Below, one piece after another: positions 29,667 through 33,133 of a DNA stretch of 64,000 bases (within the stretch, counting starts at the first letter, position 1; the number at the start of each line of letters is the position of its first letter). The DNA is from an uncultured delta proteobacterium (lineage in GTDB: Bacteria; Desulfobacterota; Desulfobaccia; Desulfobaccales; 0-14-0-80-60-11). A model generated the notes under the pieces. It made no database searches and was not told where the DNA came from. It was given only the letters and a program-made list of their open reading frames with translations. A program made the translations under genes and the position numbers. The stretch lies in the NCBI GenBank assembly GCA_963812015.1, contig CAWETI010000002.1, forward strand, positions 128,001 through 192,000, written 5' to 3'.

Positions 29667-29748
29667 GGATTCCCCTTCCTTCAGCCTAATATAACATTTT
29701 AACTAATTTATCTTCCTTGATGCAATTGTTTCCCGACCCGGTACTGTC

Positions 29749-30567
29749 CTAATTTGCCAATTCCAAAAGCTCCGAGATGGTCCACAGACGGTTAGTTACC
29801 CCCGCTTCCATAGCTGGGGTAACTCGAAGTGAACTATGAACCCGGACAAAGTTATAATGAGCAAAGTGAAGGGCAACCGCCGCTTTGAGATTGTCCAGCT
29901 TCTTGCTAAAGGCATTGGTTAGCCTGGTGAAGCGACGCATCTGCATCCGCATGGTAAGGTTTTGCCGTTCCACGTATGAGGTTGAGATATTGGATTTCTT
30001 GGGATTGCCGAGAATAACCGTGCGCTCCGCACTAACCACGTGCGGAGGCGAATACCTACCAGCGCCCATCGGCTCCGCTTCGTATGTTTTTACCACTTGT
30101 CCGTAGTCTATCCCTGCCCCAAAAGTGTCCTCCACGGCATCGACATAGGCTTTAAGGCCATCACTGCTTAACTGGACCCGATTATCAAGCCTACCTGAAA
30201 GATCAGAAATGAAAGCATAGACATTATCAATTGTCCGTTTCCCCACTAAATAAGATGGTATCAATTTGCTTTCTGCGTCTAGGGCCACGAACACCCATTG
30301 GTCGCCGAAATCAGGATCATCGGTATCCTTAAGATGGCGCTGTTTCTTCCCGACAAAGCACCAGATTTCGTCAACCTGAACGGTCTGGCATTTCAGGTTC
30401 TTCATATAGGAGTCCATAAGGTTAGCGCAGCCTTGCCCCACTCGATATCCAAGGCGCATGATGGTATCGCGGTGAATCCCGGTCATGCGTTCGACTGAGC
30501 GGATTGAAGCACCTTCCACCAAGGCCGCTATCGCCGTTTCCTGTTTTTCTCGCCTTAAGACATTCAT
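29749..30567 (-). CDS. IS1-family DDE transposase (single ORF, HTH, no N-terminal zinc finger)
   Basis: EGASIRSVERMTGIHRDT HTH; VQVDEIWCFVGKK, SSDG, VERQNLTMR DDE motifs; stop codon lies inside the TIR. Confidence 0.92.
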   Translation of the reverse strand: MNVLRREKQETAIAALVEGASIRSVERMTGIHRDTIMRLGYRVGQGCANLMDSYMKNLKCQTVQVDEIWCFVGKKQRHLKDTDDPDFGDQWVFVALDAESKLIPSYLVGKRTIDNVYAFISDLSGRLDNRVQLSSDGLKAYVDAVEDTFGAGIDYGQVVKTYEAEPMGAGRYSPPHVVSAERTVILGNPKKSNISTSYVERQNLTMRMQMRRFTRLTNAFSKKLDNLKAAVALHFAHYNFVRVHSSLRVTPAMEAGVTNRLWTISELLELAN

Positions 30568-30581
30568 CTCGGAATTTCCTG

Positions 30582-30610
30582 TTGACTAATGGGTAAATAC
30601 TTGCTATCTT
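30582..30610 (+). promoter_or_regulatory. sigma70 promoter antisense to the transposase leader
   Basis: TTGACT-17 bp-TATCTT with TG extension, 15 nt from the transposase ATG and pointing away from it. Confidence 0.65.
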
Positions 30611-30619
30611 GAACGAAAG

Positions 30620-30687
30620 TGGAGCGCCGGGGAATCGAACCCCGCCCGGAATGGGTGTAAGGGCCTCCTGGGAACCAATCGCGCCCC
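30620..30687 (-). ncRNA. tRNA/tmRNA-like domain in the transposase leader
   Basis: GGGGCGC-GATTGGTT-CCCAGGA..TCCGGG-CGGGG TTCGATT CCCCG-GCGCTCC-A: 7-bp acceptor with G3.U70, A73, canonical T-arm, stemless D-region, no standard anticodon loop. Confidence 0.6.
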
Positions 30688-30801
30688 ACGAATCGCCACG
30701 GCCTCATAGCCTAATCGCTGCCAACGACTACCAGGGTATGGGGCCTTGCTTTTGCGGTCCCTGCCAGGGCGATTCAAGGCCGACAGGAACCAAGTCTCTT
30801 C

Positions 30802-31296
30802 TCATATTTCACCTCCTTTTGCGGGCGGAGGCCCAACCTGAGTTGTTCTCTGAATATTCTTCCAAGTCCCCCTGCTAATGTTCTTGAAGAGTTTAGGTTT
30901 CCTTTGTAACGCACTCCTGATTACTTCCTGGGGATGATTTTGGCTTAATTTCCACCCTCTCTCCCGAAATTCAGCGACGATTTCCTTGATCTTCATGGGG
31001 CGCTTATATGTGTCAAAAATCATGGATATTCCCTTTTCGACCGGAATTTCAATGAGCTTGGTCTCCATTTTGGGTGGGATCGCGGCCGATAAATCAATTT
31101 CATCTGCAAATGGATCAATGCCCAGGTAAAGACGGTTATGAATCTGATTAATAAGAGATTTTATCCAATCACAATCGTTTTTTAGGGTCTCAAGTTTTGG
31201 TTCAAGTTCCTTAATTTCATTAAGTTTACTTTCAAGCTCATCCTCTAAGTTAGCGAGAGCCTTTGATAAACTTTGACGGGTAGCTTCTTCAAGCAT
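30802..31296 (-). CDS. Passenger gene: coiled-coil plus C-terminal winged-helix (HARE-HTH-like) protein
   Basis: ATG 31296 with GGGGGG RBS; heptad LANLEDELESKLNEIKELE..; RPMKIKEIVAEFRERGW..VIRSALQR..FKNISRGTW resembles a wHTH. Confidence 0.6.
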   Translation of the reverse strand: MLEEATRQSLSKALANLEDELESKLNEIKELEPKLETLKNDCDWIKSLINQIHNRLYLGIDPFADEIDLSAAIPPKMETKLIEIPVEKGISMIFDTYKRPMKIKEIVAEFRERGWKLSQNHPQEVIRSALQRKPKLFKNISRGTWKNIQRTTQVGPPPAKGGEI

Positions 31297-31465
31297 AAGA
31301 TGCCCCCCTATGCCGCTGTAAACTTCTTGATCTTCAAGAACTTTCCTGATATATACGAGATGCTTAATATTAGGCCATAAAATTTTATTGTCAATAAAAA
31401 AAGCGACTAAAAAAGCGAATATTTTTTTTGCGGATAGTCTATTTTTTTGAAAGCGTGGCCAGCGC

Positions 31466-31762
31466 ATGAGTAAAGGCTTAAAACATATTGTGGAGAAAAT
31501 ATGCGGTTGTCCCGCATCTTTTTTAGAAGATGTGGTTGTTGTTGAGAGCTTCGGGGGGCAAACCGTTTGGAGCGGTGTCGTATCCATTTTTAACCTCCAA
31601 GACCATCCGCAGGCCGATAAATGTTATGCTTGGTCATCTCCGATAGAGAGGAGCAGAAAGCGGAAATATTATGCCGTCCTTCATATCCCACCAATTGATT
31701 CCCCGGAAAAGGCTGTCAGGGCCTCCATTGTCCACGATCATAAGACGGAGAAATTGAATTAG
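31466..31762 (+). CDS. Passenger gene: 98-aa hypothetical protein
   Basis: Globular-looking ORF (GQTVWSGVVSIF..HP..CYAWS..AVLHIPPIDSPEKAVRA) divergent from the wHTH gene. Confidence 0.7.
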   Translation: MSKGLKHIVEKICGCPASFLEDVVVVESFGGQTVWSGVVSIFNLQDHPQADKCYAWSSPIERSRKRKYYAVLHIPPIDSPEKAVRASIVHDHKTEKLN

Positions 31763-31866
31763 CCCTACACCTTGTGATTTCCTTATTGTCAAATTGCATT
31801 GACCTATCTCCAGCGGTAAGGTGATTTTTAGATTTCATAAATATAATCTCGGGGGTTGAGTGCCTT

Positions 31867-32733
31867 ATGTCGGCAAAAAGGATATTCATCGCCCTAATAG
31901 TCTTGATTGCCGTTTCCCTTTGTCTTTCGGCATGGTCAGAACCAAATCCCAAACAGCCCATATCGCAAGGTAAAAGCGGCAAGTTGGCCGCACAGAAAAC
32001 CAGCAATCAAGAAAACCCAACCAAGAATATTGTTACCCTCCAAATACTTATTGACGCTATTTCTCGCGCAATAGACGCAAGCGCCGAGAAAGCTAAGGCT
32101 TACCAAAATCCTCCCCCACCAGATAATTCGTCGTGGTGGTTTTCCTTCTTTCTTGTGACGTTCACCGGAGTACTGGCCGCTGTTGCAATATTCCAATTCT
32201 TTGTCTTGAGAAACACTCTCAGAGAAACCCATAAAGCAGCTAGTGCCGCTAAAGACAGCGCCGATGCTCTTCCAATTATGGAAAGAGCTTATATCTTCTC
32301 CAAAGTTAAGCCTAATAGGGAAATTAACATTGCAGATAGCAGATTTGAGCCGGGTAATGGATTTGAAGCACGCCTTTATTTGAAAAATTACGGGAAAACA
32401 CCGGCTATTATAAAAGAAATTGCTTTCCAGGGGTATAGATATGATTCTCCTGTTAATGGTAAATTGGTCGTGATAAACGTTCATTATCCTCTCAAATCTT
32501 TTATAGGAAGCGGTGAAGAATTTTATGAAGATAGCCAACCCATCCCATTGACAATAGACAAGTGGATGGGTCTTATAACCATCGACCCTGAACTTTTTAT
32601 TTATTGTATTGGTTATATTAAATATGTTACGATTTTTGGTCAAGAACATTGTCATGGTTTTTGTTGGGAGTTCGACGGTCCCTCTGGCACTTTTGTATTG
32701 TCCCCAAATAATGATTTGAATTACAACATATAA
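31867..32733 (+). CDS. Passenger gene: exported/membrane hypothetical protein
   Basis: Signal peptide, one TM (WWFSFFLVTFTGVLAAVAIFQFF), beta-rich C-terminal domain (LKNYGKTPA..GYIKY..FG); low GC. Confidence 0.7.
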   Translation: MSAKRIFIALIVLIAVSLCLSAWSEPNPKQPISQGKSGKLAAQKTSNQENPTKNIVTLQILIDAISRAIDASAEKAKAYQNPPPPDNSSWWFSFFLVTFTGVLAAVAIFQFFVLRNTLRETHKAASAAKDSADALPIMERAYIFSKVKPNREINIADSRFEPGNGFEARLYLKNYGKTPAIIKEIAFQGYRYDSPVNGKLVVINVHYPLKSFIGSGEEFYEDSQPIPLTIDKWMGLITIDPELFIYCIGYIKYVTIFGQEHCHGFCWEFDGPSGTFVLSPNNDLNYNI

Positions 32734-33133
32734 AAAAAATAGAGAGTAGGCGCAGGCTTGTTTCCAGCCAAAGGGAGGGAGTGAAAATTTGCGCGGAAAC
32801 CGGCGGGAGATTTTTTTAGGGAGGGAATTGAGAAAATCCCGAAGTTTTCGGAAACAAATTAGGACAGTACCCCCGACCCCCCTGACTGAGAGATGGCCGT
32901 TAAAAGAAATTGGATGAATTTTCCTTGCTTCCTTGATATTATCGGGGCTAATTTGGTTATGATCAGAAGACCGCGGTTAAAACCCTATCAGGGTGTTGAA
33001 AAATGGGTTTTCTATCATCCTGAACGGAACGCATCTGTAATCTATTGATATAACGATGTTCTTTTCTTTGCTCGGAATGACCATGTGAAGAAATCGCTGA
33101 TTTTATGATCCTTACATAAAAGGAGGGGGGGAT

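Follow-up and report, generated by a model that had tools for sequence, protein, structure and literature searches.

A structured RNA upstream of an IS1-family transposase gene

The window analysed here, a 64,000-nt stretch of contig CAWETI010000002.1 (GCA_963812015.1), carries an IS1-family cargo transposon in which the transposase gene is preceded by a structured RNA ending in a tRNA-like structure (TLS). All coordinates are those of the window, and both the RNA and the transposase are read on its minus strand. Covariation, transposon borders and shared inheritance identify the RNA as an inherited, structured, element-borne part of one clade of IS1-family cargo transposons. Comparative analysis further indicates that the TLS is the 3′ domain of a structured RNA of ~190 nt, which is composed of helix P1, pseudoknot P2, hairpin P3 and the TLS. 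The window copy alone is unremarkable, with a fold z-score of −0.48; a single copy does no better than chance, and what establishes the RNA is the covariation revealed by comparison with relatives. The RNA and its immediate surroundings comprise the following features, from the RNA 5′ end to the transposase start:

30796–30816, minus strand: RNA 5′ end, conserved Shine-Dalgarno-like GGAGGUG and AUG AGA AGA G; the AUG shares nucleotides with the stop codon of the open reading frame (ORF) upstream (AUGA, 30805-30802)
30756–30791, minus strand: helix P1, 12 bp, whose loop contains the P2 5′ strand GAAUCGCC (30768-30775); covariation and RNAalifold
30746–30755, minus strand: A-rich linker GCAAAAGCAA, a U-rich tail on the antisense strand
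30700–30745, minus strand: hairpin P3, 13 positions, conserved loop UCGUUGGC; 11 of 13 pairs changed on both sides
30690–30697, minus strand: P2 3′ strand GGCGAUUC, pseudoknot; 8 pairs, of which 4 have changed on both sides; 94.2% paired
30620–30687, minus strand: TLS, 68 nt, with acceptor, D-like segment, central arm and T-arm
30651–30665, minus strand: central loop GGCCCUUACACCCAU of the TLS with the conserved YUUACA motif (tRNA-Val(UAC)-type heptamer CUUACAC); T, A, C and A columns invariant
30582–30610, plus strand: antisense sigma-70-type promoter TTGACT-17-TATCTT with TG, from a promoter scan; predicted start at the 3′ edge of the TLS
30568–30619, minus strand: transposase 5′ leader with ribosome-binding site, unstructured (fold −10 kcal/mol, z +1.45); sense promoters at chance level only

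Anatomy of the tRNA-like domain

On the minus strand, positions 30687-30620 read GGGGCGC GATTGGTT CCCAGGAGGCCCTTACACCCATTCCGGG CGGGG TTCGATT CCCCG GCGCTCC A. Specifically, GGGGCGC (30687-30681) pairs with GCGCTCC (30627-30621) to form a 7-bp acceptor stem that includes G3.U70, and CGGGG/TTCGATT/CCCCG (30644-30628) forms the T-arm. Between them, GATTGGTT (30680-30673) makes up a D-like segment, which is stemless in the subtype of the window copy, and an irregular central arm of 28 nt (30672-30645) joins both halves. The discriminator A73 at 30620 is followed by CTT, so that CCA is not encoded, and the TLS ends 52 nt ahead of the transposase ATG (30567). The sequence, the 7-bp acceptor stem, G3.U70, A73, the T-arm and the missing CCA all read as in the initial annotation of the window. 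The domain is of tRNA type in that its acceptor stem is stacked on a T-arm with a GTTCRAnYC loop and its D region contains GG; it also has G3.U70 and A73, the features of alanine identity at the level of sequence.

Among related loci, several TLS copies have a 4-bp D-stem and a 5-bp/7-nt anticodon-like arm, whereas the window's subtype has a bulged 8-bp arm and no D-stem. ARAGORN makes no call at the TLS of the window, in which it finds only a tRNA-Pro elsewhere, and calls two of the 23 related TLS loci tRNAs, namely L053 as tRNA-Stop(tta) and L034 as tRNA(cta). A73 is present in 23 of 24 TLS copies, and CCA is encoded in six.

The central loop has the consensus N-Y-Y-U-A-C-A, and its U, A, C and A are invariant though the arm that carries it changes shape between subtypes. 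The loop can be read in two registers. In the first, it presents Y-U-A, which is UUA, or CUA in L010, L105, L013, L034 and L084; this is the reading of ARAGORN in L053 and L034, and it places C at position 37. In the second, it presents the heptamer CUUACA(A/C) found in the anticodon loop of tRNA-Val(UAC), the host tRNA-Val(tac) having CUUACAA; position 37 is then a purine (A37), but five copies have C in place of U33, and in the D-stem subtype the stem is shifted by one position. A loop-based pattern matched 117 metagenome stretches, and among the 80 fetched, three match the TLS model and 73 are tRNA-Val(tac) genes by ARAGORN, which is why the heptamer is recognised as being of the tRNA-Val(UAC) type. 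Because each register has misfits (C37 in one; C33 in five copies and a stem off by one in the other), we do not label the TLS a suppressor.

Covariation of the tRNA-like domain and of the upstream helices

A scan of one genome per species yielded 553 transposase relatives, of which the best 80 were kept. A homologous TLS lies 24–69 nt 5′ of the ATG in 23 of these best 80 of 553, which together with the window makes 24 of 81 loci. Covariance model R1, built from 11 TLS copies, recovers all 24 (E 1.5e-23 to 0.19, 22 of them below 1e-5) and gives only four weak matches elsewhere (E 0.08–0.6). With 26 distinct sequences aligned to the model, 95.6% of cells are paired, versus 50–65% with slid partners, and nine of 14 pairs have changed on both sides. 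The initial annotation had staked its reading on conservation and covariation among related elements, and both are borne out. Within the acceptor stem, G1-C72 and G2-C71 are invariant and G3.U70 is present in 25 of the 26 sequences, while positions 4–7 covary; the lone exception, L034, is a row out of register and has G3.U70 when parsed by hand. The D-region GG and the T-loop consensus are likewise conserved.

In 15 copies, here called the long form, the RNA reaches ~120 nt further 5′; in short-form copies, the TLS is preceded by just an A-rich tract and a hairpin. The long-form structure was written from the window copy and tested on 15 sequences with slid-partner controls and 500 shuffles. 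Its 47 pairs are 93.3% paired (n = 15; slid controls, 40–52%), and 30 of them have changed on both sides (slid controls, 4–7), values that none of the 500 shuffles reaches. Both-side changes affect 10 of 12 pairs in P1, 4 of 8 in P2 and 11 of 13 in P3. RNAalifold, which is independent of the written structure, returns P1, P3, the acceptor stem and the T-arm, with 38 pairs, 25 of them compensatory. Counted on the sense strand, G.U pairs outnumber A.C pairs in P1 (18 versus 4) and in the acceptor stem (15 versus 0), and the order is reversed in P3 (4 versus 8). The G.U excess therefore indicates that P1 and the acceptor stem fold on the transposase strand.

Two upstream stems had been noted in the initial annotation, and both are present. 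The stem formed by GAATCGCC (30775-30768) and GGCGATTC (30697-30690) is the pseudoknot P2, made with the P1 loop. The stem formed by GGCCCCATA and TATGAGGCC (30745-30737/30708-30700) is the outer portion of the 13-position helix P3; it had been given as 9 bp, which does not hold for the window copy, where 8 positions form Watson-Crick pairs and one is a C.A mismatch. The features that go beyond this first reading are P1, the pseudoknot nature of P2, the conserved central loop, an antisense promoter with its likely terminator, and the true borders and cargo of the transposon.

P1 starts four codons past the leader AUG. In place of the AUG-proximal AGA AGA G, other copies have AGG AGG or AGA CUA CUA CGA; in the host, no Arg codon is used less often than AGA (2.4 per 1000, 3.7% of Arg codons). 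The ORFs that start at the conserved AUG comprise 24–76 codons and differ between copies in frame, length and stop, and there is therefore no conserved peptide. Initiation at this AUG may matter even though the peptide is not conserved. We also considered, and rejected, a read-through fusion of the leader ORF with the transposase, the two being in frame in L007, L008 and L009 and out of frame in the window, L006 and L010.

The RNA is carried inside the transposon

The transposon is delimited by a perfect 17-bp inverted repeat, GGTACTGTCCTAATTTG, at 29740-29756 and 32871-32855, and by an 8-bp target-site duplication, CCCGACCC:

29732–29739, no strand: target-site duplication CCCGACCC, copy 1, 8-bp direct repeat
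29740–32871, minus strand: whole IS1-family cargo transposon, 3132 bp, from inverted repeats, direct repeat, G+C content and empty sites
29740–29756, plus strand: right inverted repeat GGTACTGTCCTAATTTG, which contains the transposase stop codon
29749–30567, minus strand: IS1-family DDE transposase, 272 aa, single ORF (Pfam DDE_Tnp_IS1)
32855–32871, minus strand: left inverted repeat GGTACTGTCCTAATTTG
32872–32879, no strand: target-site duplication CCCGACCC, copy 2, 8-bp direct repeat

Consistent with these borders, the G+C content is 35–52% from ~29700 to ~33100 versus ~62% in the flanks, and in three genomes of the same genus (G017, G021 and G018) the flanks abut with an overlap of exactly 8 nt, giving the empty site. 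The same 17-bp repeats with 8-bp duplications are found in seven more of 11 fetched transposase-bearing loci, at unrelated sites and with element lengths of 3.3–5.6 kb; the other four, which are more distant, gave no terminal repeat by exact-word matching. Counting that of the window, all eight delimited elements thus have 17-bp inverted repeats and 8-bp duplications, span 3.1–5.6 kb and differ in cargo. The 98-aa protein g1, the RNA and the transposase are common to all eight, and the remaining cargo varies. The right-repeat motif is also found at 16 of 18 other TLS loci, sometimes 0.3–1 kb past the transposase stop. The RNA region and the transposase gene are single-copy in the 3.96-Mb genome; this and the position inside the inverted repeats uphold the claim of the initial annotation that the tRNA mimic is encoded by the element.

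The assignment of the transposase to the IS1 family, likewise made at the outset, rests on a Pfam DDE_Tnp_IS1 match of 36.4 bits (cut-off 24.1). The IS1 equivalog model of NCBIfam scores 62 bits, under its cut-off of 100, and homologues at 45–49% identity carry the name IS1 family transposase from the Prokaryotic Genome Annotation Pipeline (PGAP). IS1 elements typically have short terminal inverted repeats beginning GGT and target duplications of 8–9 bp, and the 17-bp repeats and 8-bp duplications of all eight delimited elements agree with this pattern. Classical IS1 has two ORFs joined by a −1 frameshift, and single-ORF IS1 subgroups exist; in the window, the two-ORF frameshift layout is absent, the transposase being one ORF of 272 aa.

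Two other placements of the RNA were tried and rejected. An internal GATAGCAAG, taken as a possible left end of the insertion sequence (IS), proved to be the −10 region of the antisense promoter. Insertion of an IS beside a pre-existing host TLS gene had been suspected from L011, which has no TLS, and from L041 and L067, which share the leader and differ in the TLS; we reject it because the true inverted repeats lie 2.3–4.7 kb 5′ of the transposase gene and because five carrier genomes contain no orphan copies.

Distribution and linkage to the transposase

In a quick IQ-TREE maximum-likelihood tree of 81 transposases, presence of the TLS requires four changes, versus 21.0 in shuffles (0 of 500), and one 22-row clade (support 84) contains 21 TLS carriers. 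The TLS-carrying clade spans metagenome-assembled genomes of Thermodesulfobacteriota, Nitrospirota, Aminicenantes and Myxococcota. An RNA-first search of five other carrier genomes gave six TLS matches, all of which adjoin a transposase gene, and no orphan copies.

Broader searches extended this picture. A scan of 83 genomes of the class found the TLS in 12, beside a transposase gene in eight (two judged from identical records), and in none of 17 other genomes of the same genus. In a phylum sample of 151 genomes, the TLS occurs in three, including that of the window, and beside a transposase gene in one of the two others. Among 80 metagenome loci, there are three TLS matches, two of them beside a transposase gene; the third, L173, has no transposase gene within the 1.7 kb examined. 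Two loci are partial: L105, from the class scan, has kept the entire RNA and the leader start and lost the transposase gene, and L239, from the phylum sample, has kept the RNA and only the first 10 transposase codons.

Other RNA-less or weakly related loci were also recorded. In an alphaproteobacterial sister clade (L029, L039, L042, L043, L045, L046, L049, L052, L057 and L060, among others), the TLS is absent from the 1–120 nt 5′ of the ATG, and a near-consensus promoter lies inside the palindrome TGTATGCA...TGCATACA, between a divergent small gene and the transposase; this palindrome is likely an operator. An acidobacterial clade (L040, L050, L068, L071, L073, L075, L077, L082 and L083) has a different conserved hairpin pair, GGCAAGCCG...CGGCTTGCC, 5′ of the ATG, with a GC-rich hairpin before it, and this pair may represent a further leader RNA. 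Three hits of the class scan resemble the TLS less closely, at 40–46 bits with R1; they lie at L106:1501-1571, at L107:1501-1570 and in the same place on the reverse strand of L108. G3.U70, A73 and the T-arm are conserved in all three, but the middle part differs and no transposase gene is nearby. L106, which encodes CCA, comes after two ordinary tRNA genes; L107 and L108 have an A-rich tract and a hairpin in front, and L108 follows a gene of the HTH/ImmA type. The three may be free-standing tRNA-like genes from which the transposon TLS was derived.

Comparison with host genes

The host genome has 51 tRNA genes and a tmRNA (transfer-messenger RNA) that is assembled twice. When the TLS is compared with the 3′ ends of all of these, the closest are two tRNA-Ala genes, with 19 of 25 identical positions, and the host tmRNA differs from the TLS in acceptor stem and T-arm. 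An exact match to a host tRNA or tmRNA, which the initial annotation had named as the finding that would speak against an element-encoded mimic, was therefore not found, the best being 19 of 25 over the 3′ part, and a host origin of the TLS was rejected on this ground. Furthermore, CCA is encoded in the 12 of 12 host tRNA genes listed in the comparison and not in the TLS. The host possesses a CCA-type nucleotidyltransferase and SmpB.

The two tmRNA genes, at C3:1901-2247 and C5:25265-25611, have identical scores and tags (ADNYGYALAA); this twin pair, together with tRNA-Glu(ctc) on both C4 and C5, therefore points to an apparent duplication in the assembly (contamination 5.72%). At C3:1704362-1704457, the ARAGORN output includes a tRNA of 96 nt whose type is undetermined and whose anticodon has four letters (ggtg).

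Sense transcription and a predicted antisense unit

Between the TLS and the ATG, sense promoters occur at chance level, with a score sum of 169 over 24 loci versus 158.7 ± 8.1 in shuffles. Consensus sense promoters are found 5′ of the RNA, at 12 of 12 matches in L014, where the promoter is ahead of the hairpin and the TLS, and at 11 of 12 in L121, and further upstream promoters were found by eye in L007, L009, L012, L015 and L044. Alternatively, transcription may come from an upstream gene in the same orientation, and in the window the stop codon of this gene overlaps the leader AUG (AUGA, 30805-30802). Because a sense promoter is lacking between TLS and ATG and promoters or a co-oriented gene are found upstream, we assign the TLS to the transposase transcript; the RNA would accordingly sit in the 5′ untranslated part of that transcript.

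On the opposite strand, 22 of 24 loci have a putative sigma-70-type promoter that matches the consensus at 8 or more of 12 positions and often includes an extended TG. Its −10 box ends 2–20 nt, mostly 6–9 nt, from the 3′ end of the TLS, and its −35 box overlaps the start region of the transposase. The score sum is 209 versus 159.4 ± 7.9 in 300 shuffles, whose maximum is 182, a comparison that overstates independence in that the loci are related, though spacers differ widely between subgroups. The scan found this promoter in all four loci inspected (the window, L014, L030 and L121).

The A/purine-rich tract always precedes the hairpin on the sense strand, and a U-rich tract therefore follows the hairpin on the antisense strand. 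Judged from sequence, P3 in the long form, or the hairpin 5′ of the TLS, is likely the terminator of an antisense transcript. The terminator-like hairpin and the A.C excess in P3 together suggest that it ends an antisense RNA of ~120–150 nt, and the predicted positions of start and end suggest that this RNA would cover the TLS almost exactly.

Comparison with known RNAs

No Rfam family reaches its gathering score in the window region, and none fits the RNA in the 18 loci examined. For the window TLS, no match to RF00005 is listed at E ≤10 (lower-scoring matches of the same clan being hidden), and none is found at E ≤1 in the 18 loci. These outcomes, with the missing ARAGORN call in the window copy, complete the Rfam and ARAGORN checks proposed in the initial annotation.

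That annotation had also described the architecture as that of the tRNA-like domain (TLD) of tmRNA, which is overstated, given that the tmRNA scores are below threshold, tRNAs score as high or higher and some relatives are tRNA-like. Specifically, the tmRNA model RF00023 gives 25.7 bits for the window and 17.6–32 bits for six relatives, against a gathering score of 47, and ordinary host tRNAs reach up to 41.6 bits with this model in the same search; the permuted and beta forms of tmRNA match the T-arm only. An mRNA-like domain with tag frame and pseudoknots between the halves is absent, the halves of the TLS being joined by the 28-nt arm, and the true host tmRNA lies elsewhere. The TLS resembles the TLD of tmRNA, which in mitochondria occurs in TLD-only forms, in its GGG...UCC-A end, G3.U70, A73, canonical T-arm and, in the window's subtype, stemless D region. 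Unlike tmRNA, it is contiguous over 68–71 nt, has neither mRNA-like domain, tag frame nor pseudoknot ring, mostly lacks an encoded CCA and lies in the leader of a transposon.

The best loose Rfam match is the mascRNA-menRNA family RF01684, with 23.6 bits (E 0.09) for the window and 30.3 bits for L012, both short of the gathering score of 42.5. mascRNA is excised from a longer transcript by RNase P and RNase Z. Like mascRNA and the MEN-beta RNAs (MALAT1, NEAT1), the TLS would be a tRNA-like fold inside a longer transcript, and these RNAs are a model for the processing step proposed below. Unlike the vertebrate nuclear mascRNA, with which it has no common descent, the TLS conserves an alanine-type acceptor end and an anticodon-loop motif.

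Among RNA viruses, turnip yellow mosaic virus (TYMV) has a valine-accepting tRNA-like structure with a pseudoknotted acceptor at the 3′ end of the viral RNA. The TLS of the transposon is similarly a tRNA mimic in a selfish element, with an acceptor/T limb and an anticodon-loop mimic of the Val type; in contrast to the viral form, it is internal in a DNA-transposon transcript and has a plain 7-bp acceptor stem. The IS110 bridge RNA and the IS200/IS605 omega RNA are element-encoded RNAs of other IS families. The RNA described here shares with them its nature as a structured non-coding RNA that adjoins a recombinase gene and is co-inherited with it, but there is no sign of a guide (eight unrelated targets), and both the enzyme class (DDE) and the RNA fold differ.

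Transposase control by RNA is itself known, and in IS10 it is exerted by the RNA-OUT/RNA-IN antisense pair. IS200 is reported to have a structured 5′ untranslated region and processed small RNAs derived from the leader (PMC5435999). The transposon described here resembles these elements in that a predicted antisense promoter lies inside it beside the transposase start, the 5′ untranslated region is structured and the leader RNA may be processed. It differs from IS10 and IS200, which are not known to have a tRNA mimic, and the predicted antisense RNA would span the TLS and not the ribosome-binding site.

Full-text literature searches, in a collection that may lack subscription journals and recent work, found no tRNA-like RNA described in IS1-type or other DNA transposons; the statement of the initial annotation that no IS1-family regulator of this kind is described agrees with both the Rfam and the literature searches. 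RNA viruses, tmRNA and a few processed eukaryotic transcripts provide known cases of tRNA mimicry. Such mimicry and RNA control of transposases are thus each known, and what is new is their combination in the leader of a DDE transposase gene.

A model for the RNA and its alternatives

The reading that we favour, tentatively and with somewhat less than even confidence, is that the RNA is a control module for transposase expression at the RNA level, which would combine tRNA-type processing in cis with an antisense RNA. RNase P on the 5′ side and an endonuclease on the AU-rich 3′ side would excise the folded TLS from the primary transcript, as happens to tRNA precursors and mascRNA. Excision would cut the transposase message off from strong upstream transcription and leave it short-lived, with an unstructured 52-nt leader. 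The anti-TLS RNA and convergent transcription from the antisense promoter would modulate this excision, and in the long form, ribosomes on the leader ORF with its rare Arg codons would decide the folding of P1 and P2. In an RNA-less sister clade, the same position is occupied by a promoter within or flanked by a palindrome and by a divergent small gene (by eye), which we count in favour of the leader model.

After release, the TLS is probably also recognised by an aminoacyl-tRNA synthetase or the ribosome in a second role, which we propose because processing alone needs no invariant G1-C72, G2-C71, G3.U70 and A73 and no Val-type loop. Strict conservation of the charging identity suggests that the RNA has such a role once released. 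Cleavage by RNase P or RNase Z, alanylation, recruitment of SmpB/EF-Tu and release as a non-coding RNA had been raised in the initial annotation as possible activities. Should the processing and antisense model be true, it would be a new means of insulating and throttling a transposase through the tRNA-maturation machinery of the host; should the RNA be charged after release, this would be the first case of a bacterial DNA transposon with a tRNA mimic that acts on translation. The RNA is co-inherited with the transposase across several phyla, in transposons that carry restriction-modification and other defence genes, and the family is well delimited by its covariance model, element borders and empty sites, which makes these proposals directly testable.

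Several observations weigh against the control module. Processing needs the acceptor/T helix only, which leaves the invariant G3.U70, A73 and loop motif unexplained, and just six of 24 copies encode CCA. The RNase Z candidate of the host scores 70.9 and 37.9 bits, under the family cut-off of 293. On the antisense side, a strict terminator scan finds a 14-bp terminator at one of four loci only, L014; the long-form hairpin, taken as a terminator, has a 20-nt loop and a weak U-tract; and the loci behind the promoter statistics are related to one another. Finally, L105 and L239 keep the RNA after loss of the transposase gene, and L011, nested among the close relatives of the window, lacks the RNA although it has the transposase; neither part therefore strictly needs the other.

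A released TLS could instead acquire CCA, be charged, with Ala through G3.U70 or with Val through the UAC-type loop and A73, and act in trans on translation. It would be a TLD-like or suppressor-like mimic or a synthetase decoy, with the antisense RNA as antidote or regulator and the proximity to the transposase serving mainly co-inheritance. We consider this unlikely, though many features fit it: G1-C72 and G2-C71 are invariant and G3.U70 nearly so (25 of 26) while positions 4–7 covary; A73 (23 of 24 copies), the D-region GG and the T-loop consensus are kept; the loop U-A-C-A is invariant on an arm that changes shape, and the heptamer is that of the host tRNA-Val(UAC) loop. Furthermore, two relatives are called tRNA-Stop(tta) and tRNA(cta) by ARAGORN, the host genome provides both a CCA-type nucleotidyltransferase and SmpB, the predicted antisense unit is limited to the TLS, and L105 and L239 retain the RNA without the transposase gene. 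It is opposed by the mostly unencoded CCA, by the missing D-arm in the window's subtype, and by the misfits of both loop registers, C37 in the stop register and C33 in five copies with a stem off by one in the Val register. In addition, the genes of the element contain no in-frame stop codon that a suppressor could act on, and read-through from the leader ORF into the transposase is in frame in only three of six close copies.

In its fullest form, which we regard as doubtful and a shade less probable again, a chargeable mimic encoded by the transposon, with an Ala-type end and a Val(UAC)-like or stop-reading YUA loop, would form together with the matching antisense RNA an RNA-only module acting on host translation. 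If true, the pair would be a suppressor- or rescue-type tRNA or an antidote-checked synthetase decoy, a new class of mobile-element RNA function, and it could make the output of transposase, or the fitness of the host, depend on the charging state of the cell.

It is improbable that the antisense transcript alone is functional, in the manner of RNA-OUT, and that the tRNA likeness of the opposite strand reflects ancestry without present function. The conserved antisense promoter and terminator and the better pairing of the hairpin on the antisense strand would fit such a reading, but G3.U70 would be a conserved C.A mismatch there, and G.U pairs far exceed A.C pairs in the acceptor stem and P1. 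Moreover, the T-loop, GG and A73 are conserved in the sense reading, and P1 and P2 lie beyond the antisense terminator yet covary.

A role as cofactor or guide of the transposase, like that of the IS110 bridge RNA or the TnpB omega RNA, in target choice or transpososome assembly, is more improbable still. The RNA is structured, adjoins a recombinase gene with which it is co-inherited, and has conserved loops; a guide reading is nevertheless weak because eight insertions with near-identical RNAs have hit unrelated targets, with unrelated 8-bp duplications and flanks. By eye, the conserved loops have no complementarity to the inverted repeats, and RNA-guided targeting was rejected on these two grounds. 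L011 has no RNA, and DDE transposases of IS1 with inverted repeats require no guide.

Capture of a host tRNA or tmRNA fragment, an att-like remnant, or conservation of a small coding ORF can be dismissed as very improbable: tRNA and tmRNA 3′ ends are frequent integration sites, and a Shine-Dalgarno sequence and AUG precede the region with ORFs of 24–76 codons readable through the RNA, but both acceptor strands are present, no host gene is copied, the TLS is carried within the transposon across several phyla and shows compensatory changes, and the leader ORFs, rejected as a protein-coding gene, vary in frame, length and stop, the compensatory changes altering both peptide segments.

Other genes of the transposon and its surroundings

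In transposase orientation, the element consists of the left repeat, a 288-aa ORF and g1 (both on the opposite strand), a HARE-HTH-like ORF, the RNA, the transposase and the right repeat. The genes other than the transposase are:

30802–31587, minus strand: upstream ORF with a weak HARE-HTH match (6.7e-7 for its homologue in L118); promoter-like site at 31394-31367
31466–31762, plus strand: g1, 98-aa protein without known family, present in all eight delimited transposons and beside the RNA-less L011
31867–32733, plus strand: cargo ORF, 288 aa, no family match

The true start of the upstream ORF is probably near 31296 (MLEEATRQ...), because its 5′ part overlaps g1. No Pfam or NCBIfam family matches g1, for which the Atlas gives only unnamed clusters. 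Homologues of g1 (~100 aa), with the conserved CYAWSSPIEGS.KR.YYAVLH.PP.DSPEKAVRA, occur in L007, L009, L011-L013, L015, L020, L026, L028, L044 and L084. g1 goes with this transposase clade even at L011, without the RNA, and is usually first in the restriction-modification cargo operon; it may be a controller or accessory protein.

The cargo of the delimited elements includes Eco57I/N6-type restriction-modification; an HNH endonuclease with C5 methylase and Vsr; N4/N6 methylase with Tsp45I; a dCTP-deaminase-like protein with C5 methylase and Vsr; and HARE-HTH proteins. In further relatives, the RNA neighbours a Gp49/HigB-like and HTH pair or a P63C protein. At nine relatives (L013, L015, L020, L021, L026, L028, L041, L067 and L084), the right-repeat motif lies 0.3–1 kb downstream of the transposase stop, and extra genes are therefore placed between the transposase and the element end. 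Just outside the transposon of the window, a stretch of ~100 nt within 32982-33105 is a dispersed host repeat, with many matches at 70–75% identity in this genome and in others of the same genus.

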